Notes under the pieces: model-generated | Database searches by the model: none | What the model was told of the DNA's origin: nothing | Seen by the model: only the letters and a program-made list of their open reading frames with translations | Shown: positions 25,001 to 35,426 of the stretch, piece by piece | Numbering within the stretch: the first letter of the stretch is position 1 | How the letters are laid out: every line of letters starts with the position of its first letter | Translations under genes and position numbers: made by a program | DNA from: an uncultured Actinomycetes bacterium | GTDB taxonomy: Bacteria > Chloroflexota > Dormibacteria > Aeolococcales > Aeolococcaceae | Assembly (NCBI GenBank): GCA_964499205.1 | Contig: CAZCJX010000002.1 | Location: forward strand, 9,102-73,101 | Length of the DNA: 64,000 nucleotides | Direction of reading: 5' to 3'

Positions 25001-25999
25001 TCAGCCCTGCAGCTGCGTGCCGGCGATGAGCACGACCAGGACGTAGGCCACCCAGGGGATGCCGTTGAGCGCCAGCCGCGTCCCGCGGGTGCGGCCGTCG
25101 TGGACCAGCAGCAGGGTGTAGAGCCCGGTGACCAGGGTCAGGCCGAGGTTGATCACTCCCAGCCGCCCCGGTGACCAGGTGGTGAAGGCCAGCCCCAGCG
25201 CGCCCAGCATGCAGGCCTGGAAGGTGACCGCGCCGGCGACGTTGCCGAAGGCCAGCCCGTCGCTGTGCGCGTGGATCCAGAGCACGCTGTTGAGCGTCTC
25301 GGGCAGCTCGGTGGCCAGGGGGACGAGCACCAGGGAGAGCAGCAGCGGCGAGATCTTCACCGCGTGCGCGAGGTCCTGCAGCGCGTGCACGAAGACCTCC
25401 GCGCCGCCCACCAGCATGGCGATGGCCAGCGCCAGCTGCAGGCTGATCACCCAGGGCTGCGGCAGGCCGGTCCGGTCCTCGTCCCAGCGCAGCAGGTGGA
25501 GCGGCTCGGGGAGCTCGTCGGTGGGAATCCCGCTGCGCAGCGTGGCCCGGACGTAGCGCGCGTAGAGCAGCACCAGCAGCACGGCGCAGATCGCTCGCGC
25601 CCACTGGGGCAGCACCACCGCGACCAGCAGGATCCAGAAGGCGCCGATGAAGCTGCCCAGGTCGCGCCGCACCTGCGCCGCCTCGACGTGCAGCCGGGTC
25701 TGGCTGCGCCGCACCGCCACGGCGAAGCCGGCCACCGCCATGCCCAGGGTGATGAGCAGGAACGGCGCCCCGATCACGGCGCCGACGGCCACCGCGTCGG
25801 CGGTGGGGCCGCGGCCGATCAGGGCGACCACGGGCACGGCCGTCTCGGGCAGGGCCGTGCCCAGGGCGGCGAGCAGCGAGCCGGTGGCGCCGCTGCCGAG
25901 GTGGAGGCGGTAGCCGGCCCACTCGATGGCGTTGGTGAACAGCTCCGAGCCGGCGACGATGAGCACCAGGCTCACCGCGAACTCCAGCCCCGTCGTCAT
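25001..25999 (-). CDS. Ca2+/cation antiporter (CaCA, YrbG-like sodium/calcium exchanger)
   Basis: 332 aa and about 10 TM. Two alpha-repeat signatures, GTALPETAV and LATELPETL. Its ATG overlaps the selB stop (ATGA). Confidence 0.8.
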   Translation of the reverse strand: MTTGLEFAVSLVLIVAGSELFTNAIEWAGYRLHLGSGATGSLLAALGTALPETAVPVVALIGRGPTADAVAVGAVIGAPFLLITLGMAVAGFAVAVRRSQTRLHVEAAQVRRDLGSFIGAFWILLVAVVLPQWARAICAVLLVLLYARYVRATLRSGIPTDELPEPLHLLRWDEDRTGLPQPWVISLQLALAIAMLVGGAEVFVHALQDLAHAVKISPLLLSLVLVPLATELPETLNSVLWIHAHSDGLAFGNVAGAVTFQACMLGALGLAFTTWSPGRLGVINLGLTLVTGLYTLLLVHDGRTRGTRLALNGIPWVAYVLVVLIAGTQLQG

Positions 26000-27885
26000 C
26001 GCGCTCCGCCCCCGGTCCGCTGGCGCAGCCGGCGCAGGTCGCCGTCGCGGACCGTGATGCGGGCGGCGTCGAGGTGCTCCAGCAGGGGAACGACCAGGCG
26101 GCGGGTCGCGCCGAGCACGTCGCGCAGCTCGGCGACGGTGGCGCCGTCGTGGCTGGCGAGGTGCTGGCTGACCGCCTGCTGCGCCCGCGCGTACGCCGCG
26201 GCACCCATCACCACGTCGGCGCTGAGCCGGACCACGCGGCGCTCGTCGATGAGCAGGCGCAGCAGCGGCGCGGTGAGGCCGGCGGCGCGCAGGTCGGCCA
26301 TGCCGGGCGGGTCATAAGGGCGGGCTTCGAGCAGGGCGACGACGGCGTCGGCGGCGGCGCGCGCGGTGTCGCTGACGGCGCGGCCGCGGCCGGGCAGGGC
26401 GAGCGCACCGTCGTGCTCCTCGACGGCACCCTCGGCGCGCAGGCGGCGCAGCGCCTCGGCGCCGATCGCGGCGGTGAGTCGCAGGCGCGAGCGCCACTCC
26501 TCGCGGGCCATGCCGGCGCGCAGCGGCTCGGCGTCGTGGTAGGCGGCGAGGACCCGCAGCGCCCGCTGGCGCAGCTCGGCCCAGCGCTCGCGGGCGATCC
26601 AGCGCTTCTCGCCGAACGGCATGACGCTGTCGCCGAGCTCGGCGACGGCCGCCTCGACCTGGCGGTGGCCGGCGCCGCTCAGGCGCACCAGGGTGGGCAG
26701 GTCGACGCCGAGGCGCTGCTTCCGCAGCTCTTCGAGCACCAACGCGGCCGCCTCGCCACCGGCGCGCCGCTGCAGCGCCTCGGCGACCGCGGGATCGCGC
26801 CGCCGGTGCCGCTTCGGCGCCACGTCGAGCACCACCCCGCCACCCACCGTGGCCGCCGGCGTGGCCCGGCGCAGCACGACGTGGTCGCCCGGTGCCGCGA
26901 CGACCGGCGCGTCGAGGTGGATCTGCGCGAACCCCTCCGCACCGGCTGGCAGTTCGCTGCCCTCCAGCAGCCAGACGCTGCCGGAGACCTCCTGGGTGCC
27001 GAGGTAGAGCATCACCGGGCCGCGGTGGCGCAGCGGCGCCGGCGAGTCGTCGAGCACGCGGACGCGGAGGTCGAGGCGGTTGGCCGGCACCAGGGTGCCC
27101 GGCAGCACCAGGGCCATGCCGTGGTGCAGGTCGGAGACCTCGACGCCGCCGAGGTTGACCGCGGTGCGCCGCCCCGGCTCGGCGCGCTGCACCTCGTCGC
27201 CGTGGTGCTGCAGGGTGCGCACCCGGGCGCGCAGGCCCGGCGGCAGCACCAGCACCTCGTCGCCGGTGTGCAGGCGGCCGCCCTCCAGGGTTCCGGTCAC
27301 GACCGGCCCGAACCCGGGCAGGGCGAAGGCGCGGTCGACGAACAGCCGGGGCCGGCCGCGGTCGGGTCGCGCGGGCACGCCCCGCAGCTCGCACTCCACG
27401 GTGCGTGCCAGCTCGTCCAACCCCTGGCGCGTCACCGCCGAGCAGGCGACGATCGGCGCGCCGCGCAGGGGCGATGCGGCGATCACCTCCTCGACCTCGG
27501 CGCGGGCCAGCTCCAGCATCTCGGCGTCGACCAGGTCGCACTTGCTCAGCGCCACCACCGCGCGCGAGGCGCCGAGCAGGCCGCAGATGGCCAGGTGCTC
27601 GCGGGTCTGCGGCATGACGCCCTCGTCGGCGGCGACCACCAGCAGCACCAGGTCGATGCCGTGCGCCCCGGCCAGCATGGTGCGGATGAAGCGGCGGTGC
27701 CCCGGCACGTCGACGACGCCGACGCGCTCGCCGCCGGGGAGCGTCCAGGCGGCGAAGCCCAGCTCGATGGTCATGCCCCGCCGCTTCTCCTCGGCGAGGC
27801 GGTCGGGGTCGGTCCCGGTCAGGGCGAGCACGAGGCTGGACTTGCCGTGGTCGACGTGGCCCGCGGTGCCGACGACGTGCTGCAC
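25996..27885 (-). CDS. selB: selenocysteine-specific translation elongation factor SelB
   Basis: GTPase motifs [13 protein letters not shown] and SKCD. EF-Tu-like domains II/III plus a long C-terminal winged-helix extension. GTG start. Confidence 0.9.
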
Positions 27886-27933: not shown

Positions 27934-28452
27934 CTAGCGGGGACGGCGCAGGGCGTCCACGATCACCGCCAGCCAGCGGGCGCCGAAGAAGAGGACGTGG
28001 CGCAGGCTGACGGGCTGGACCCGGTGCACCGGCGGCGCGCCGGCGGCGGCGGCGACCGCGTCGGCGACGCGCTGGTGGATCCAGGGGAAGGTGGTGTGGG
28101 GGAGGTGCCGCGGGTCGACGAAGCGCACGCGCAGCGCCTCGATGCTGCGCCGCCACTCGCCGCCGGTGATCTCGCCGATGTAGACGGCGTCGCTGGTGCG
28201 GCGCAGGCCGTCCCAGGTGTAGACGCCGGCCAGCCCGGTGACCCGGACGGTGTAGCCGGTCTCCTCCTCCGCCTCGCGGGCGGCGGCCAGGGCGGGGTCC
28301 TCGCCGGGGTCGCAGTGGCCGCCGGGCAGCTCCCAGCCGGGCGGCCAGGGGCGGAGCTGGACCAGCACCCGGCCGTCGCGGACCAGGGCGAGCTGAGCCC
28401 CGGTGATCGGCAGGAGGGCGCCGTCGACGGTGACGGTGGGGCGCTGCCTCAC
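27934..28452 (-). CDS. NUDIX hydrolase
   Basis: Nudix box [26 protein letters not shown] 28452 overlaps the selA stop (GTGA). In frame with tracked ORF 27934..29640. Confidence 0.8.
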
Positions 28453-29822
28453 CCGGCGCGGTGGACGGTCTGCCAGGCGCCGCGCACGGCGTCGAGCAGC
28501 GGCGCCTCGTCGTCGCCGAGCACGGTGCGGGGGTCGAGCCAGACCAGGCCCTGCTCGGCGCGGGCGACCACGGGTGGCTGCTGGGCGCGCAGGGCGACGA
28601 GGAGCTGGCCGGTGCGACCGGGCAGGGTGAGGCAGGTGGTCGGCAGGGTGGTGCCGGGCAGCGAGCCGCCGCCGGCGGCGCTGTCGGCGCTGGCCGTGCC
28701 GGCGGGGATGCCCTCCTCGCGCAGCGCGTCGCACCAGCGCTGGGCGGTGGCGGCGAGATCGGCGGCGTTCCGGCGCAGCATCTGTTGCACCGGCACGCTC
28801 TCCGCCGCGTCGCCGCGCAGGTGGGCGGCGAGGGTCGCGCCGAGCGCCGCGAGCACCATCTTGTCCGGACGCACCGCGCGCATCAGGGGATGGCGGCGCA
28901 GCCTGGCGATGAGCTCGGCGCGACCGGCGATCAGTCCCGCCTGCGGGCCGCCGCACAGCTTGTCGCCGCTGGCGGTGACGATGTCGGCGCCGTCGCCGAT
29001 GCACTGCTGCAGCACCGGCTCGCCGGCGAGCTGGGGGGCGACGGCGGCGTGGTCGGCGAAGGCGCCGCTGCCGGCATCCTCGATGAGCAGCAGGCCGTGC
29101 CGCCGGGCCACCGCGGCGACATCGGCGGTGGTGGGGCGCTCGGTGAAGCCGACGATGGCGAAGTTGGAGGGATGCACGCGCACGATGGCGCGGGTGCGCG
29201 CGGCGACCGCCTGCTCGTAGTCGGACGCGCGGGTGCGGTTGGTGGTGCCGACGTCGACCATGCGCGCGCCGCTCAGCCGCATCACCTCGGGGACGCGAAA
29301 GCCGCCGCCGATCTCCACCGCCTCGCCGCGCGACACCAGCACCTCGCCGCCCTTGCACAGCGCGCTCAGGGTGAGCAGCACCGCCGCCGCGTTGTTGGTG
29401 GTGACCAGCGCGTCCTCGGCGCCGCAGAGAGTCGCCAGCAGCGCGCGCACGTGGTCGTGGCGGGAGCCGCGTGCACCGCTGTGCAGGTCGAGCTCGAGGT
29501 CGGAGTAGCCGGCGGTGGCTGCCTGCACGGCGTCGCGCGCCGCCTGCGACAGCGGCGCGCGGCCGAGGTTGGTGTGCACCACGATGCCGGTGGCGTTGAT
29601 CACCCGGCGCGGGCCGGGCTGCAGGCGCGCGGTGAGCCACTCCGCAGCGGCAGCCGCCAGCGCGTCGTCGTTCTCGTGCAGCGATGTGCCGGCGAGCCTG
29701 CGCTCGCGCTCGGCGTCGATCACGGCGCGCACCGCGGTGACCAGCGCGGTGGTGCCGTGCCAGGGCGCCAGCCGTTGGTGCGCGGCGAGCCGGTCCACCG
29801 ACGGCAGGTCGCGCGGCAGCAC
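28449..29822 (-). CDS. selA: L-seryl-tRNA(Sec) selenium transferase SelA
   Basis: LPSVDRL N-terminus, INATGIVVHTNLGRAPL, and PLP-lysine block SGDKLCGGPQAG. Start placed at GTG 29822, directly after the upstream gene's stop. Confidence 0.9.
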   Translation of the reverse strand: MLPRDLPSVDRLAAHQRLAPWHGTTALVTAVRAVIDAERERRLAGTSLHENDDALAAAAAEWLTARLQPGPRRVINATGIVVHTNLGRAPLSQAARDAVQAATAGYSDLELDLHSGARGSRHDHVRALLATLCGAEDALVTTNNAAAVLLTLSALCKGGEVLVSRGEAVEIGGGFRVPEVMRLSGARMVDVGTTNRTRASDYEQAVAARTRAIVRVHPSNFAIVGFTERPTTADVAAVARRHGLLLIEDAGSGAFADHAAVAPQLAGEPVLQQCIGDGADIVTASGDKLCGGPQAGLIAGRAELIARLRRHPLMRAVRPDKMVLAALGATLAAHLRGDAAESVPVQQMLRRNAADLAATAQRWCDALREEGIPAGTASADSAAGGGSLPGTTLPTTCLTLPGRTGQLLVALRAQQPPVVARAEQGLVWLDPRTVLGDDEAPLLDAVRGAWQTVHRAG

Positions 29823-29823
29823 C

Positions 29824-30630
29824 CTACGTCCCTGCAGGTGGTGGGAAGAGCATCCACAGACGCGGCAGATCGGCGCCGAAGAATGGCGATGCGCCCACCA
29901 CCGTGGTGAAGATCGTGTCGTTGACATGCATGATCAGCGACCAGAGCGGGTTGTTGGCGCCGCCGGTGGCGAGCGGGATGCCGATGAGGAAGGCGAAGGC
30001 GAGCAGGTACACGATCTGCCGGTTGCGATCGATGAGGTGGAACAGTTCGGGAACGGCCCGGCCGAAGAGCCCACGCGCCACCGTGTACCCGTCCAACGGC
30101 GGGATCGGAATGCTGTTGAAGACGAACAGCACCACGTTGATGAAGAACGCTTCGGCGAGGAAGAGGTAGAGGATCACGTCGGCGCCACCATGGCCGAAGG
30201 TGAGGAACAGGTGCGGCTCGTTGCCGTACAGGCCGGGCACGAAGGCGTCGGTGACGACGCGCCCGGTGAGGCCTGGGCCGGAGACCAGCAGGAGCACCCG
30301 CAGGGCCAGGCCGAAGATGCCGGCGAGGACGAGGTTGGTGAGCGGTCCTGCGGCGGCGACCAGCGCCTGCTGGGTGGCCGTCCGGATGTATGCGGTGCTG
30401 AACGTCACCGGCTTGGCCCAGCCGAATCCCGCGGTGATGAGCAGGCCGAAGCCGATGGGGTCGATGTGTTGCCGCGGGCTCAGCGTCATTCTTCCCATGC
30501 GCCGCGGCGTGGGGTCGCCCAGCCGGACGGCCGCCGCGGCATGGGCGAGCTCATGGAGGACGAAGCCGATGATCAGCCCGGGCAGCGCGTAGAGCAGATA
30601 GGCGACGTACTCGGCGATCGATGCGCTCAT
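29824..30630 (-). CDS. site-2 protease family (peptidase M50) intramembrane metalloprotease
   Basis: HELAHAAAA (HExxH) in TM1 and the NSIPIPPLDG motif. Polytopic. Confidence 0.8.
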   Translation of the reverse strand: MSASIAEYVAYLLYALPGLIIGFVLHELAHAAAAVRLGDPTPRRMGRMTLSPRQHIDPIGFGLLITAGFGWAKPVTFSTAYIRTATQQALVAAAGPLTNLVLAGIFGLALRVLLLVSGPGLTGRVVTDAFVPGLYGNEPHLFLTFGHGGADVILYLFLAEAFFINVVLFVFNSIPIPPLDGYTVARGLFGRAVPELFHLIDRNRQIVYLLAFAFLIGIPLATGGANNPLWSLIMHVNDTIFTTVVGASPFFGADLPRLWMLFPPPAGT

Positions 30631-30642
30631 GGGGGGCTTGGC

Positions 30643-30861
30643 TTACTCCAGCTCGATCTTCACCGGCCGCCGCGACTCGCGGCGCGCCTTGCGCTCCTCG
30701 GTCTGCACGTGCCGCGCGTGGTGCTCGATGGTCGCCTTGACGGCGAGGAACAGCTCGGCCTGCGCCTTGATGAGGTGCGCCTGCGCCTCCGGCGGGATCA
30801 GCTCGGAGAACGCCGTCCCGGCCAGCTGCGCCGCCTCGGCGGCGAGGCGACCGGGACACAT
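30643..30861 (-). CDS. small (72 aa) helical protein of unknown function
   Basis: ATG 30861 lies 17 nt after the ArsA stop. Very high GC3 throughout. Predicted amphipathic helices and a basic C-terminus. No family recognised and no clear SD. Confidence 0.5.
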   Translation of the reverse strand: MCPGRLAAEAAQLAGTAFSELIPPEAQAHLIKAQAELFLAVKATIEHHARHVQTEERKARRESRRPVKIELE

Positions 30862-30878
30862 GGTGCAACGGTCGTCGC

Positions 30879-32051
30879 TCAGCTCTTGGCACTCCCGAAG
30901 GTGATGCGCAGCATGCCCTCGTCGAGGCGGGCGCCGCGGGTGACCCGGCCGCGCAGCGAGCGCGGCAGCGAGATCTCCCGCTTGTACGGTCCGACGGTGA
31001 CGAAGAGCTCGTCCTCGCGGTGGGTCAGCTCGATCTCGTCCTTGCTGACGAAGGGAAGATGCAGCAGCAGCTCGTACTCGCTGCCCTTCTTGCTGATGCG
31101 CTGGGGCACCGAGTGGTAGTAGATCTCGGCGGGATCGCGGTCGCCGAAGATCGATTCGGACATCTCGGCCAGGGCGTCGACGCCGACGATCTCGTGGTCG
31201 AAGAGCTTGGTGCGCACAATGGGCACCGGCGAGAACGCCGATTCGACCACGCTGTCGTAGCGCTGCTGCGCGGCGCGCCAGGACGCGAAGTAGCTGTCGG
31301 TCACCTCGGGCGGCAGCACCCGGTTCACCACCACCAGGTCGACCAGGTAGTCGTAGAGGCTGAGGTAGGTGAAGGCGCGCTGCGCCTCCTTGACCACCAT
31401 CTTCTCCAGGTTGAGCACCAGCCGCACCGTGCAGTTCTTGGGGTCGCCGAGCACCTTCTTCATGCCCTCGAGGTCGAGCAGCAGGTCCTTGACGCTGCCG
31501 AAGATGTCGTCCGAGGGAAGCGGGATGTTGACGAACGGCTGCACCATCGGCCGCGCCACCTTCATCACCCGGCGCTCGATGGGGAAGATCTTGTTGAGGT
31601 ACCACTTGGCCACATCGGGAAACGCCAGCAGCTGCAACGTCTCGCCGGTGGGCGCGCAGTCGACCACCAGCACGTCGTACTCGCCACGCCGCTGGTGATG
31701 CCTGATCCACATCAGGCTGGCCACCTCCTCCATCCCCGGCGGCGAGGCCAGCTCCTCGGCGACGATGTCGTCGACGCCCTGCGAGGCGAACAGTGCCGTG
31801 AGGTAGTCGTGGATGCGGTCCCAGTGGTTCTCCAGCTCGTGGAGCGCATTGACCTCCTGGGCCCAGAGATTGGGCTCGATCTCGACAGGATGGTCGGCGA
31901 TCTCGACGTCGAGGCTGTCGCCCAGGCTGTGCGCCGCGTCGGTGCTGATCACCAGGGTGCGATAGCCGAGGCGTGCGCAGCGGACCGCGGTGGCGGCCGC
32001 GACGGACGTCTTGCCGACGCCGCCCTTGCCCGTGTAGAGGATGACTCGCAT
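30879..32051 (-). CDS. ArsA/Get3-family ATPase with C-terminal HSP20-like (ArsA_HSP20) domain
   Basis: P-loop YTGKGGVGKTS and the STDAAHSLGD switch. C-terminal ..LHLPFVSKDEIELTHREDELFVTVGPYKREISLP.. is alpha-crystallin-like. Confidence 0.9.
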   Translation of the reverse strand: MRVILYTGKGGVGKTSVAAATAVRCARLGYRTLVISTDAAHSLGDSLDVEIADHPVEIEPNLWAQEVNALHELENHWDRIHDYLTALFASQGVDDIVAEELASPPGMEEVASLMWIRHHQRRGEYDVLVVDCAPTGETLQLLAFPDVAKWYLNKIFPIERRVMKVARPMVQPFVNIPLPSDDIFGSVKDLLLDLEGMKKVLGDPKNCTVRLVLNLEKMVVKEAQRAFTYLSLYDYLVDLVVVNRVLPPEVTDSYFASWRAAQQRYDSVVESAFSPVPIVRTKLFDHEIVGVDALAEMSESIFGDRDPAEIYYHSVPQRISKKGSEYELLLHLPFVSKDEIELTHREDELFVTVGPYKREISLPRSLRGRVTRGARLDEGMLRITFGSAKS

Positions 32052-32092
32052 TGGCTTCCGTCAGCCCGCGCGGCGACGCGCCGGCCGCGAGG

Positions 32093-32635
32093 TCACTTGA
32101 CGATCGCGTTGATGACGAAGTTGGCGACGACGATGAGCACGATCATCAGTCCCGCGATGATCAGCACCCGCCGCAGGTCGCCGGGGACGTAGGGAACGCG
32201 GTCGAAGGGGATGGCGGCGTCGTCGGGCGGCAGCGGCTCGAACATCGCCGCCGTGTTCTGGGCGCGACCGCCGCGGGGCCGCTGGCCGGGGCGCTGCGCC
32301 ACCGCGGTGGCTCCCGCCGCTGCCGCGGCGGCGTTGGGATCGATGCGCCCGACCCTTCGGCGCTCGGTGGACGTGCCGGCGCTGGTGCCCGTGCCCGCAC
32401 CGTTGGCGGCGGGTTGCGCCCGCTCCACCTCCGGGGGCGGCAGCGGCATGGGGCCGTCGCTCTCGGGGACGGGCAGCGCGCCGCTGGCGTAGTCGTCCGG
32501 GGAGCCGTCGAGGTCGACGTCGGGCAGGTCGACAGCGGGCGCCGGCGCGCCCTGGCCCCGCGACATCGGCGCCTGGGGCTGGGGCCGTCTCGGCTGCTGC
32601 TTGCGTGCCGGCGGACGCTTCGACTTCTTCGCCAT
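32093..32635 (-). CDS. tail-anchored membrane protein (disordered K/R/P-rich N-terminus, single C-terminal TM)
   Basis: In-frame ATG 32635 (MAKKSKRPPARK..). The last 25 residues are RRVLIIAGLMIVLIVVANFVINAIVK*. GC3 is high from 32635 downstream and drops upstream of it. The gene lies 41 bp upstream of the ArsA-like gene. Confidence 0.6.
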   Translation of the reverse strand: MAKKSKRPPARKQQPRRPQPQAPMSRGQGAPAPAVDLPDVDLDGSPDDYASGALPVPESDGPMPLPPPEVERAQPAANGAGTGTSAGTSTERRRVGRIDPNAAAAAAGATAVAQRPGQRPRGGRAQNTAAMFEPLPPDDAAIPFDRVPYVPGDLRRVLIIAGLMIVLIVVANFVINAIVK

Positions 32636-32816
32636 GGTGCGGCCGTGAAGGGTAGCAGGAGCCGCCGTTGGGGAGGCAGGAATGGCTGTCCCGGCGGCAG
32701 TCGGATTGGCGCTCGGTGGCGCGCTGCTTCGCGAGCGCCGAACGCTTGACCGCCGCAACATGCTGGGGTACCATTCCGCGCGGACCACAAGATGTGGGCT
32801 GCACCCGCACAGTTCG

Positions 32817-32913
32817 GGTCCACAGGCAGCAGGCGCCGGGCTCGCCCACCAGCCCCAACCGACCGTTCGTGCAACGGCCACCGTTATCCGGCGTTCTGCT
32901 GCCTGTGCGGACC
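32817..32913. repeat. long interrupted inverted repeat (about 22 bp stem) inside a 336-bp non-coding region
   Basis: GGTCC-ACAGGCAGCAG-GCGCCGG (32817-32839) pairs with CCGGCG-TT-CTGCTGCCTGT-GC-GGACC (32888-32913). The apical 48 nt contains further small hairpins (CCGTT..AACGG). Confidence 0.5.
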
Positions 32914-32937
32914 TGAAGAGATTCCAAGCTTGTCCGA

Positions 32938-32972
32938 CCAACCTTGGAATTCGCCCCTGGAATTCCAAGGAT
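32938..32972. repeat. AT-rich palindromic unit L: CCAACCTTGGAATTCG-CCCCTGG-AATTCCAAGGAT
   Basis: 11-bp perfect arms CCTTGGAATTC/GAATTCCAAGG (32942-32952 and 32960-32970). The last base overlaps the Fic stop codon. 28 of its nt are identical to unit R. Confidence 0.85.
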
Positions 32973-34234
32973 CAGCGCGCCTGGCGATGGGTCCCCAGGC
33001 GGCTCGACTGGCGTCGTTGCGAGGCCTTCGCCGGCGGCTCGACCACGGTGATCGCCGCGGCCGGGGTGGCCAGGCGCCGCTCCACCGCGTCCACCATGTC
33101 GAACACCTCGTTGGCAGCCCAGGCTCGGCGGTATCGCGAGGTGCTGAGGCTGCGGATGATCCCCGCCTCTTCCAGCTGCAGCAGCGCGGTTCGCGCCGCC
33201 TCGTGCGACACGCCGAACATCTCCTGCACCGCGGCGGTGTCGACGATCGGCGTGCCAGCCAGCCGTTCGATGAGCCGCGCGGCCGTCGAGCCCTGCCGCG
33301 GCCGGCCTGCGGCTTCGAGCCACCGCTCCCGCTGCGCTGCCACCTCGTCGGCGAGACCCAGCGCTGTCTGTGCCGCGATCGTCGTCGAGCGGGCGAACAT
33401 CGAGATCCACTCCGAGACGCCGCCATTGCGGAAGGCGGTGAGGCCCGCGATGTAGCCGCGGCCGTTGGCGGCGAGCACCAGGCTGATCGGCGGCACGAAA
33501 CGCGGCGCCAGGCCACGCCGCACCAGCACCGCATGGATCAGGCAGCGGCCGATGCGCCCGTTGCCGTCACCGAAGGGATGGATGACCTCGAACTGGGCGT
33601 GGGCCACGGCAGCCTGCACCACGGCCGGCATGTCGTCGCGAGCGACGAAGCGAACCAGGTCCTGCAGCAGGTCGGGGACCAACTCGGGCGGCGGTGGCAC
33701 GAAGGCGGCGCCGACGGGATTCCAGTCGTTGCCGCCGATCCAGTTCTGCGTGGTGCGCACGGTCCCGGCGATCTGCGACTCGTCGGTTGCTTCGAGCAGG
33801 ACGCGATGCATCGCCACGATGTCGTCCACCGCGAGCCGCCGCGGCGTGCGCGCGCGGGCGATGGCCGCCTCCATGGCGTGGACGTTGTTGACGACTTCGC
33901 GCGCAACCCGGTCATGCACCGTCGCGTCGAAGGCGACGCGGGCGAGGCGCTTCTGGCCGACGCGCAGCCCCTCGATGCGCGACGAGGCGTTGCTCTCGGC
34001 GCGCAGCAGCAGCGATGCCATCGAGTCGAGGCCAGCGATGGCGGTGGCGCGGTCCTGCAGGGCTTGCACCGCCTTCTCGGCGTCGACCACCTCCTGGGCG
34101 GTGGCCGCACCGACCAGCAGGTCGAGGTGGGCGACCGGGTCCGGGACGAACGCCTGGTACGAACCGCCGACCCTGGCCACCTTGGACGGGGCACCGGGGA
34201 CGCCGGGCCAGCGGGCTCTGACGTAGTGGGACAT
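32972..34234 (-). CDS. Fic family protein (Fic_N + Fic + C-terminal winged-helix), AMPylation-competent motif
   Basis: Active site HPFGDGNGRIGR. N-terminal inhibitory-helix motif SSRIEG matches (S/T)xxxE(G/N). C-terminal wHTH-like segment VQEMFGVSHEAARTALLQLEEAGII. Confidence 0.9.
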   Translation of the reverse strand: MSHYVRARWPGVPGAPSKVARVGGSYQAFVPDPVAHLDLLVGAATAQEVVDAEKAVQALQDRATAIAGLDSMASLLLRAESNASSRIEGLRVGQKRLARVAFDATVHDRVAREVVNNVHAMEAAIARARTPRRLAVDDIVAMHRVLLEATDESQIAGTVRTTQNWIGGNDWNPVGAAFVPPPPELVPDLLQDLVRFVARDDMPAVVQAAVAHAQFEVIHPFGDGNGRIGRCLIHAVLVRRGLAPRFVPPISLVLAANGRGYIAGLTAFRNGGVSEWISMFARSTTIAAQTALGLADEVAAQRERWLEAAGRPRQGSTAARLIERLAGTPIVDTAAVQEMFGVSHEAARTALLQLEEAGIIRSLSTSRYRRAWAANEVFDMVDAVERRLATPAAAITVVEPPAKASQRRQSSRLGTHRQAR

Positions 34235-34238
34235 GGGG

Positions 34239-34272
34239 CCAACCTTGGAATTCGAGCGTCAATTCCAAGGAT
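34239..34272. repeat. AT-rich palindromic unit R: CCAACCTTGGAATTCG-AGCGTC-AATTCCAAGGAT
   Basis: 10-bp perfect arms (34243-34252 and 34261-34270). Begins 4 nt from the Fic ATG. On the mRNA strand the only SD-like AAGG lies inside the 3' arm. Confidence 0.85.
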
Positions 34273-34280
34273 AGACCAAG

Positions 34281-34315
34281 TTCCTTGGATTGCCTAGCCG
34301 GGATTCCAAGGTTGT
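34281..34315. repeat. degenerate third palindromic unit (inverted orientation): TTCCTTGGATT-GCCTAGCCGG-GATTCCAAGGTTGT
   Basis: Arms CCTTGGA(-)T/ATTCCAAGG with a one-base gap. GATTCCAAGGTTGT repeats GATTCCAAGCTTGT at 32920-32933. Confidence 0.55.
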
Positions 34316-34334
34316 TCTTGCCGGCCTGGGACGC

Positions 34335-35426
34335 TCAGACGTTGAAGCGGAAGTGCATCACGTCGCCGTCCTGGACGAGGTAGTCGCGGCCCTCGAGGCG
34401 GAGGCGGCCCTGCTCGCGGACGGCGGCGTAGGAGCCGGCGGCGATGAGGTCGGCGGCGGACACCACCTCGGCGCGGATGAATCCCTTGGCGAAGTCGGTG
34501 TGGATCTCGGCGGCGGCGTCGAGGGCGGTCTCGCCGCGGCGCACGGTCCAGGCGCGCACCTCCTTCTCGCCGGCGGTGAAGAAGGTGATCAGGGCGAGGA
34601 GGTGGTAGGCGGAGCGGGCCAGACGGTTGAGGCCGGGCTCCTCCAGGCCCAGGGAGGCGAGGAACTCGCGCTGGTCCTCGGCGTCGAGCTCGGACAGCTC
34701 CGACTCGATGCGCGCCGACACGGCCACCGCCTCGCCGCCGCTGCGCTCGGCGCGCTCCTCGACGCGCCGCAGCACCGCGGCGCCGGCCGGGTCGTTCTCG
34801 TCGACGTTGGCCACAACCAGGATGGGCTTGGCGGTGAGCAGGAAGAGGTCGCGCAGCGGTGCCTGCTGCTCCTTGGTGAGGCCCATGGTGCGCACCGGCT
34901 GGCCGGAGTCGAGGTGCTCGCGGACCCGGCGCAGCACGGCGATGTCCTCCTCGGCGTGGTCCTTCTGCAGCCGCGAGGTGCGCTCCGACCTGTCGAGGCG
35001 CTTGGTCACCGATTCGAGGTCGGCGAGCTGCAGCTCCAGCTCGAGCAGGTCGATGTCGCGCACGGGGTCGACCGAGCCCTCGACGTGGGTGACGTCGGGA
35101 TCGTCGAAGCAGCGGACCACCAACGCGACGGCGTCGGTCTCGCGGATGTGGCCGAGGAACTGGTTGCCCAGGCCCTCCCCGCGGGAGGCGCCGCGCACCA
35201 GGCCGGCGATGTCGGTGAAGGTCACCGTGGTGGGGATGACCCGCGGAGGGTTGAAGATCGCGGCGAGCTGCTCGAGGCGGGGGTCGGGGACGGGCACCAC
35301 GCCGGTGTTGGGCTCGATGGTGGTGAAGGGGTAGTTGCCCACCGCCGCCCCGGCCCGCGTCAACGCGTTGAAAAGGGTCGACTTCCCGGCGTTGGGCAGG
35401 CCGACGATGCCGACGCTCAGACCCAT
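34335..35426 (-). CDS. ychF: redox-regulated ribosome-binding ATPase YchF
   Basis: GIVGLPNAGKSTLFNALT, and the TGS domain ending DGDVMHFRFNV. Confidence 0.95.
   Translation of the reverse strand: MGLSVGIVGLPNAGKSTLFNALTRAGAAVGNYPFTTIEPNTGVVPVPDPRLEQLAAIFNPPRVIPTTVTFTDIAGLVRGASRGEGLGNQFLGHIRETDAVALVVRCFDDPDVTHVEGSVDPVRDIDLLELELQLADLESVTKRLDRSERTSRLQKDHAEEDIAVLRRVREHLDSGQPVRTMGLTKEQQAPLRDLFLLTAKPILVVANVDENDPAGAAVLRRVEERAERSGGEAVAVSARIESELSELDAEDQREFLASLGLEEPGLNRLARSAYHLLALITFFTAGEKEVRAWTVRRGETALDAAAEIHTDFAKGFIRAEVVSAADLIAAGSYAAVREQGRLRLEGRDYLVQDGDVMHFRFNV

Follow-up and report, generated by a model that had tools for sequence, protein, structure and literature searches.

A Get3d-type ATPase, a small PF27253 protein and a tail-anchored protein linked in one gene string of Dormibacteria

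Get3 homologues with a C-terminal alpha-crystallin domain are widespread in bacteria and occur in plant chloroplasts, and the accessible parts of two papers (PMC10248533, PMC6593721) state that neither the native clients and partners of these homologues nor the function of their crystallin domain is known. The Get3d proteins capture a tail-anchored (TA) protein in vitro. Their alpha-crystallin domain sits where Get4 binds the Get3 dimer and is without the usual oligomerisation features, unlike the small heat-shock proteins; no operon partner is described for them in the accessible part of that paper (Barlow et al. 2023, PMC10248533). A survey in Traffic in 2019 assigned alpha-crystallin Get3 homologues from Chloroflexi, Actinobacteria, Firmicutes and other phyla to a bacterial 'group 6', and the accessible part of it states their function as unassigned, reports no correlation between these homologues and TA-protein abundance, contains no gene-neighbourhood analysis and mentions neither a PF27253 partner nor a TA neighbour (PMC6593721). 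For archaeal Get3 homologues, binding of TA proteins has been demonstrated, according to the same part of the survey. Here we analyse a gene string on the minus strand of a 64,000-nucleotide stretch of DNA (the window; G+C ~72%) from an uncultured soil bacterium of the class Dormibacteria, which encodes, in this order, a TA protein, an ATPase of this kind, a small helical protein, an M50 intramembrane protease and SelA. The genome is filed under a phylum to which genomes with the public label Chloroflexota/Chloroflexi also belong. An earlier note, made from the letters of the window, had given the order and coordinates of these five open reading frames (ORFs), and an ORF listing recovered all of them exactly where it had placed them.

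The core of the locus is, with good support, a two-protein unit made up of a Get3d-class ATPase and a small two-helix protein of the PF27253 (AF_1253) family. The TA protein may act as a hub next to this unit, plausibly serving the ATPase as a privileged client and the M50 protease as a substrate, with neither factor obligatory. We give this reading, which comes from sequence comparison, a rough probability of 0.42. From gene content, conservation, coupling and fold, which are observed, we infer every physical interaction proposed below. The locus supplies three candidates for the class of ATPases described above, namely a helper with a docking-type tail, a candidate TA client and a candidate protease. 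In the searchable literature we found no description of a PF27253 (AF_1253) partner translationally coupled to a Get3d-type ATPase and bearing an IXI-type tail, nor of the class-wide pairing with a TA protein or its alternation with an M50 protease.

The Get3d-type ATPase and the small protein

The earlier note had described the ATPase as an ArsA-family protein with a C-terminal alpha-crystallin-like domain, and Pfam, the predicted model and Foldseek all confirm this. The protein scores 303.4 bits against Pfam ArsA_ATPase (cut-off 24.3), 74.6 bits against PF17886 (ArsA_HSP20; cut-off 22.5) over residues 324-385, and 254.4 bits against TIGR00345, the TRC40/GET3/ArsA subfamily model (cut-off 135). 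Both the deviant Walker A motif, GKGGVGKT at residues 8-15, and switch II, DCAPTG at residues 131-136, are intact. Cysteines are found only at residues 25, 132 and 207, with no CxxC motif. A helical TRC40-type insert, residues 139-205, contains two long helices and three methionines and aligns to archaeal Get3 without large gaps. The closest solved sequences are archaeal Get3 3ZQ6 (9e-48) and 3UG6, together with Chlamydomonas ARSA1, and the matches to the Get3d proteins of Nostoc and Arabidopsis reach 8e-23 and 1e-8, respectively.

The AlphaFold2 (AF2) model of the ATPase (pLDDT 81, pTM 0.80) resolves the nucleotide-binding core and a seven-strand C-terminal sandwich (E317-322 to E380-386), and has two long helices of low confidence, residues 135-201, at the place where Get3 proteins bind their clients. 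In a Foldseek search the core matched archaeal Get3 best (3ZQ6/3UG7, TM-score ~0.8 on the target), and among the 50 matches listed only NosGet3d (8EGK/3IGF) and AtGet3d (8ELF) cover ~385-412 columns, with the crystallin domain included. Judged by its sequence and predicted fold, the ATPase is of Get3d architecture with its catalytic motifs intact. The described Get3d proteins (Arabidopsis At1g26090, 8ELF; Nostoc All4481/NosGet3d, 3IGF/8EGK) have the same core and a seven-strand crystallin domain, likewise with no CxxC motif. However, they share only 20-23% identity with the ATPase described here, the core of which is closer in sequence to archaeal Get3, and the host in this case is not known to be photosynthetic. 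The archaeal proteins (Methanothermobacter thermautotrophicus 3ZQ6; Methanocaldococcus jannaschii 3UG6/3UG7) are the closest solved core and also lack CxxC, but they are without the alpha-crystallin domain. Against the NosAFP equivalog NF050088 the ATPase scores 150.7 bits, under the cut-off of 325, in a match that spans the full length of the model, which places it in another subgroup of the same architecture, where the core resembles that of archaeal Get3 and the catalytic motifs are intact. The ATPase adds a member to a class already described. It agrees with the subgroup of intact catalytic motifs that the accessible part of PMC10248533 reports for green non-sulfur bacteria and Sll0086, and with 'group 6' of the 2019 survey, whose members, in the accessible part of PMC6593721, combine a single Get3 domain, a TRC40-type insert, a nucleotide site and an alpha-crystallin domain as seen here.

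The small protein had been treated as incidental in the earlier note, but it turns out to be the most widely conserved partner of the ATPase. Its gene lies directly downstream of the ATPase gene in 30 of 30 loci of the order to which the window belongs. In a sample of 151 genomes of the phylum, grouped by the identity of their ATPase to the query, the same arrangement is found in all 13 genomes with an identity of at least 57%, all of them Dormibacteria, and in 22 of the 45 with an identity of 47-56%, which belong to other Chloroflexota, giving 35 genomes in total. The helper is thus conserved across Chloroflexota, and it also stands directly after a gene for ArsA_ATPase plus ArsA_HSP20 in three of three metagenome contexts of distant family members, with taxon not assigned. 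We consider the small protein, from this conservation, to be the strongest candidate partner of the ATPase.

A profile search with the small protein returned 784 relatives, and almost all of the 120 listed, more than 100 homologues, carry a precomputed PF27253 (AF_1253) assignment, as does the 72-aa product of the window itself. A Pfam copy without the PF27253 model gave no match, and none to DUF5304 either. The AF2 model of the protein (pLDDT 86.7) consists of a helix at residues 10-26 and a 40-residue helix at residues 31-70. A profile search against the sequences in the PDB returned chance matches only (E >= 0.17), and Foldseek with the AF2 model found no match among solved folds. We also searched for natural fusions of the ATPase and the small protein; the apparent long frames were overlapping alternative frames and no fusion was found.

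The 72-aa ORF that the earlier note had placed after a 17-nt gap is present, but its start lies more likely at CTG 30882, giving a protein of 79 aa. In ~20 of 30 relatives the start of the small ORF overlaps the stop of the ATPase gene as ATGA, GTGA, TTGA or TGATG, and CTG takes the overlapping position in the genus of the window and in a few sister genera (CTGA; CTGAGCGAC...). The residues between CTG 30882 and ATG 30861 (SDDRC-x-x-C) are conserved at the protein level, and at the place of ATG 30861 close relatives have TTG, CTG or GCG. In three relatives no canonical start precedes the conserved core of the small protein. The overlap with the stop in relatives, the conserved residues 5' of the ATG and the failure to keep this ATG together place the start at CTG 30882, so that the small ORF most likely begins at a non-canonical CTG overlapping the TGA of the ATPase gene. 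The small protein would then probably be translated by termination-reinitiation at the ATPase stop, so that both proteins would be produced together.

The C-terminus of the small protein follows the pattern [KR]-[IV]-x-[IVL]-[ED]. The positions -4 ([IV]) and -2 ([IVL]) are kept in 120 of 120 homologues and in 42 of 42 alignment rows, an acidic residue stands at -1 in 116 of the 120, and a basic stretch precedes the I-x-I tail in the protein of the window. IXI peptides dock in the beta4/beta8 groove of the alpha-crystallin domains of small heat-shock proteins. As in the C-terminal IXI of these proteins, or the IPV motifs through which BAG3 pairs with HSPB8 and HSPB6, the small protein presents an [IV]-x-[IVL] end, and it is encoded beside a crystallin-bearing protein. 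In this case, however, the motif sits at the extreme C-terminus and is followed by an acidic residue, and docking is proposed by analogy. We know of no small IxI-tailed partner of archaeal Get3. A CxxC(P) pair occurs at the N-terminus of the small protein (30844-30867, minus strand) in only part of the family (loci L013, L014, L015, L017, L019, L021, L026 and L037), and the ATPase of the window is without the CxxC zinc motif of eukaryotic Get3.

The tail-anchored protein, the protease and their linkage

The topology that had been claimed for the 180-aa protein, a single transmembrane (TM) helix at the C-terminus and a basic N-terminus, was confirmed by its hydrophobicity profile. The hydrophobic segment covers residues 157-175 with a Kyte-Doolittle value of 3.12, against a maximum of 0.76 elsewhere, and the first 30 residues, which begin with the peptide MAKKSKRPPARKQQPRRPQ, carry a net charge of +9 and are basic, not hydrophobic. 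The protein is laid out as a basic peptide, a low-complexity Pro/Ala-rich linker, a juxtamembrane motif, the TM helix and a tail of at most five residues, and the same layout is seen in all 36 aligned homologues. In this alignment (A2) P, D, L and M are invariant and P, D, R, Y and R nearly so. The juxtamembrane motif reads (I/V)P-x-D-R-(V/T)-P-Y-x-x-x-D-L-R-R-(V/I), and the TM helix carries the invariant Met. At the other end, the motif M-[AS]-[KR]-K-x-[KR]-[KR] is kept across orders (MAKKSKR.., MARKNKR.., MSKKGRKKGR..).

The ratio of nonsynonymous to synonymous substitution rates (dN/dS), calculated with two congeners, is lowest at the N-terminus (0.24-0.29), higher at the C-terminus (0.45-0.60) and highest in the linker (0.65-1.0), a pattern which argues that the protein is translated from the first ATG and that both termini are under purifying selection. 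Within the otherwise fast-evolving linker, a block at 32450-32500, DDYA-x-x-A-(L/I)-P-x-x-ESDGPMPLPP, is kept within the genus. The protein belongs to no Pfam or NCBIfam family. Its 113 homologues are all unnamed proteins, and those with an organism name all come from metagenome-assembled genomes of Candidatus Dormibacteraeota/Dormibacteria. Strong matches are confined to Dormibacteria, where they occur in 145 of 151 genomes and almost always in single copy, and weak matches with the same layout (E 2e-7 to 1e-3) are found in other Chloroflexota families. Two distant TA-like genes in one Chloroflexota family (L095:3001-3336 and L099:3004-3444, both on the minus strand) immediately precede selA, and neither the ATPase nor M50 accompanies them; from N- to C-terminus, their products consist of a basic stretch, a low-complexity linker, a Y..DLR motif and a TM helix. 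This hints at an old association between the TA gene and selA.

The M50 protease matches Pfam PF02163 (Peptidase_M50) with 48.3 bits against a cut-off of 27.2. It has HELAH at residue 26, NSIPIPPLDG at residue 172 and four hydrophobic segments, and contains no PDZ or CBS domain. The daptide protease model of NCBIfam gives a weak match.

We determined the linkage of these genes in 151 genomes of Dormibacteria, judging the ATPase absent at a threshold of E <= 1e-20 and calling M50 orthologues at E <= 1e-15. The ATPase is present in 104 genomes, and the TA gene in 104 of these 104. In 102 genomes a single contig carries both, and in every one of these 102 the TA gene precedes the ATPase gene in the same orientation, at a distance of 8-1874 nt (median 94). 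The conserved linkage that the earlier note had called for was therefore found within Dormibacteria; outside the class, the nine loci read that hold the ATPase-small pair had no TA or M50 neighbour. An M50 orthologue occurs in at least 94 genomes. In 87 of them it is found 72-3616 nt downstream of TA in the same orientation, and the others come from fragmented assemblies that place it on a separate contig, or from a genome in which no TA match was obtained. Within the order of the window, the TA, ATPase and small genes are contiguous in 30 of 30 loci with gaps of 5-140 nt, M50 comes next in ~20 of the 30 and selA in ~8. Adjacency to selA recurs in several other orders of the class.

A different arrangement is found in a family of the class that we denote f3. 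Most of the seven f3 loci read run ychF - lplA-like - TA - bactofilin (PF04519) - M50 - selA - selB. In some f3 loci M50 follows the TA gene directly, after 72-87 nt, and in others via one bactofilin gene, after ~600 nt. The f3 genomes sampled at the level of the phylum have no small protein either. In two f3 loci the bactofilin (PF04519, E 8e-25; L079:5297-5710 and L083:4470-4934) fills the position of the ATPase-small pair between TA and M50. The locus thus occurs in three states, TA with ATPase, small protein and M50, TA with ATPase and small protein, and TA with M50, and the TA gene is the only element present in all of them. The gene arrangement is far beyond chance, because it recurs in every related genome examined.

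Readings of the locus

A TA gene common to all locus states is what would be expected if both the ATPase and the protease act on its product, and the retention of the TA gene by whole lineages without the ATPase or without M50 would make both factors dispensable accessories. Very hydrophobic C-terminal helices are what a Get3-type groove takes up, and an N-in helix whose ectodomain has been trimmed can be cleaved by site-2 proteases. We propose that the TA protein, lineage-specific and very hydrophobic, would be the most likely privileged client of the ATPase. Its C-terminal helix, once off the ribosome, would be shielded by the ATPase dimer and then passed to the membrane. Being N-in, with an ectodomain of at most five residues, the TA protein could plausibly also serve as a direct substrate for the PDZ-less M50, and cleavage would free its basic cytoplasmic part. 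The K-I-x-I-E tail of the small protein may dock in a beta4/beta8-type groove of the alpha-crystallin domain and so regulate the ATPase/chaperone cycle. The placement of this domain at the Get4 site, as given in the accessible part of PMC10248533, means that a ligand bound there could regulate the cycle of the ATPase. In Dormibacteria the ATPase-small pair would sit within an older string of YchF ... TA - M50 - selA - selB.

Taken further, the locus might encode a minimal bacterial GET-like pathway, with its parts side by side, plus proteolysis, forming an insertion-plus-proteolysis circuit; we regard this stronger version as unlikely. In such a pathway the crystallin domain of Get3d-class ATPases would receive, in trans, the I-x-I tail of the PF27253 helper, and this helper would gate the ATPase cycle in the manner of Get4 in eukaryotes. 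The TA protein would be a native client genetically linked to a prokaryotic Get3, the first of its kind, and M50 would free the basic cytoplasmic domain of the TA protein as a signal. The working model is the same as for the GET/TRC pathway, with an ATPase dimer shielding a C-terminal TM helix, and a crystallin-bound regulator would parallel Get4. In contrast to that pathway, the locus yielded no homologue of Get1, Get2, Get4, Get5 or Sgt2, the presumed insertase (YidC?) shows no linkage to it, and the partners found here are unrelated in sequence. Were these roles correct, the locus would show a GET-like system working without Get1, Get2, Get4 and Get5 and would provide a handle on chloroplast Get3d. 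If they are not, the view of bacterial alpha-crystallin Get3 ATPases as general holdases would be supported.

The earlier note had seen in the locus a dedicated module for TA insertion and intramembrane proteolysis. Genomic linkage and topology support the module in part, but a number of observations weigh against a dedicated or obligatory tie and, to that extent, against the TA protein as a hub. The tie is weakened by 41 of the 151 genomes, almost all of family f3, which have the TA gene but no ATPase, and by at least 16 genomes of the window's own family, which have TA, ATPase and small protein but no M50 orthologue. The seven ATPase-less loci read conserve the TA protein equally well in its juxtamembrane motif and its basic N-terminus. 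The hydrophobicity of the TM helix does not track the presence of the ATPase beyond lineage, being 2.65 without the ATPase versus 2.63 in two ATPase-bearing families, and 3.13 in the window's own order. Families that have no ATPase contain distant TA-like genes, of which two adjoin selA, and nine loci with the ATPase-small pair outside Dormibacteria have no TA-type ORF and no M50 nearby. The small gene itself is directly downstream of the ATPase in none of 28 genomes at 38-46% identity, in which the ATPases are distant alpha-crystallin-bearing paralogues. Finally, the string also holds the unrelated genes selA and selB, which makes a shared operon weak evidence, and with these genes and an equally old synteny with YchF, inherited gene order could explain much of the linkage.

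It is possible, though in our view rather less than even, that inherited synteny is all there is to the arrangement. The ATPase and the small protein would then form a general holdase or membrane-protein chaperone with many clients, and TA, M50, selA and selB would be neighbours by descent. The block YchF-TA-(ATPase-small)-M50-selA-selB is indeed class-wide, with unrelated functions included, and the persistence of the TA gene in the 41 genomes without the ATPase, like the lack of a TA neighbour in other Chloroflexota classes, is in keeping with such descent. The literature, as far as the accessible part of PMC6593721 goes, also favours a general chaperone role for bacterial alpha-crystallin Get3 homologues. 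Synteny would, however, not by itself lead us to expect that the TA-ATPase-small run stays unbroken throughout the window's own order although M50 and selA are gone from the vicinity in about a third of its loci and the fic gene was found in no relative, or that the TA gene is common to all three locus states.

A more doubtful alternative, built on analogy, is that the TA protein is a membrane receptor or tether, its basic N-terminal peptide on a disordered linker recruiting the ATPase dimer or stimulating ATP hydrolysis. The N-terminus of Get2/CAML acts in this way on Get3, as do the basic N-terminal peptides of ParB, MinE and PomX on ParA/MinD-type ATPases. The basic N-terminal part of the TA protein is similar to the Get2 tether in charge and layout, and the charge of its first 30 residues, a motif kept across orders with the lowest dN/dS in the protein, and a linker that evolves almost neutrally, as expected of a tether, would all suit this role. 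Yet the same N-terminal motif is found in the f3 loci, where the ATPase is absent, and in the distant TA-like proteins, and no insertase-like polytopic partner (Get1/WRB-like) is encoded in the locus.

We hold it to be at least as doubtful that the TA protein and M50 are the functional pair, a membrane-tethered factor freed by intramembrane proteolysis, into which the ATPase-small cassette was merely inserted. Small M50 proteases are encoded beside their substrates in the case of YydH-YydF and the daptide protease, and RseP/RasP provide a precedent for site-2 proteolysis. The f3 loci, with M50 right after the TA gene or past one bactofilin gene and no ATPase, are consistent with such a pair, and the type II topology and minimal ectodomain of the TA protein would suit a site-2 protease acting without prior site-1 cleavage. 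As in the known pairs (RseP-RseA, RasP-RsiW/FtsL, YydH-YydF), the M50 protein has HExxH and NxxPxxxxDG motifs, next to an N-in single-pass candidate substrate with almost no ectodomain. Unlike them, the protease here is without PDZ or CBS domains, the TA protein has no sigma or anti-sigma domain, and the pairing is not obligatory, as either gene can be found without the other: the at least 16 genomes mentioned above hold the TA gene with no M50 orthologue anywhere in the assembly, and the distant TA-like genes adjoin selA without M50.

An ArsA arsenite pump is effectively refuted, its sole support being the Pfam family name ArsA_ATPase, given a single 390-aa domain with no tandem duplication, scores of 90 bits against 650 for TIGR04291 and 117.6 bits against 800 for NF041417, an alpha-crystallin domain and a Get3-type helical insert that speak against it, and no ars gene among the neighbouring genes scanned.

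Coordinates and surroundings of the string

The features of the locus are collected in the table. The TA and ATPase genes, which occupy different reading frames, are separated by 41 nt, the ATPase stop and ATG 30861 by 17 nt, and the small ORF and M50 by 12 nt. A scan for promoters and terminators detected nothing terminator-like inside the string on the minus strand (33100 to 29500), which together with the tight spacing is consistent with a single transcription unit. In the spacer ahead of the TA gene, the same scan found no consensus promoter on the minus strand, and the spacer matches no Rfam family (best E 0.32). No tRNA gene, and hence no selC, lies between 25000 and 36000.

Features of the locus in the coordinates of the window
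Feature	Position	Strand	Product	Remarks
selB	25996..27885	minus		Downstream of selA; SelB domains by Pfam
selA	28449..29822	minus		Pfam SelA 391 bits; GTG at 29822, 1 nt past M50 stop
M50 protease gene	29824..30630	minus	268 aa	
Small helical protein gene	30643..30882	minus	79 aa from CTG	72 aa from ATG 30861
Small-protein C-terminal pentapeptide	30646..30660	minus		K-I-E-L-E
ATPase gene	30879..32051	minus	390 aa	ArsA_ATPase + ArsA_HSP20
Alpha-crystallin (HSP20-like) domain of ATPase	30894..31103	minus		Residues ~317-386
TA protein gene	32093..32635	minus	180 aa	
TA residues 141-180	32096..32215	minus		Juxtamembrane motif AIPFDRVPYVPGDLRRV, TM helix VLIIAGLMIVLIVVANFVINAIV, final K
Non-coding spacer fic-TA	32636..32971	minus		336 nt; probable promoter/leader region of string
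ychF region	34335..35426			Upstream of TA

The spacer between the TA and ATPase genes (32052-32092) contains a 6-bp GC stem (CGCGGC ... GCCGCG) and lacks a T-run. The ATG of the ATPase gene is preceded, at 3 nt, by GGAAG, which resembles a Shine-Dalgarno site, and the TA gene has no obvious Shine-Dalgarno sequence of its own. A fic gene and the GTPase gene ychF stand upstream of the TA gene in the window; a fic gene in this position was not found in any relative. In this window and in three distant Chloroflexota loci (L052, L077 and L090), ychF is within one or two genes of the ATPase-small pair. Elsewhere in the same genome, contig C7 carries at 32954-34800 two adjacent distant matches to ArsA-family ATPases (E 1e-15 and 2e-25 against PF02374), a pair which may resemble the paired mycobacterial BagA/BagB type.

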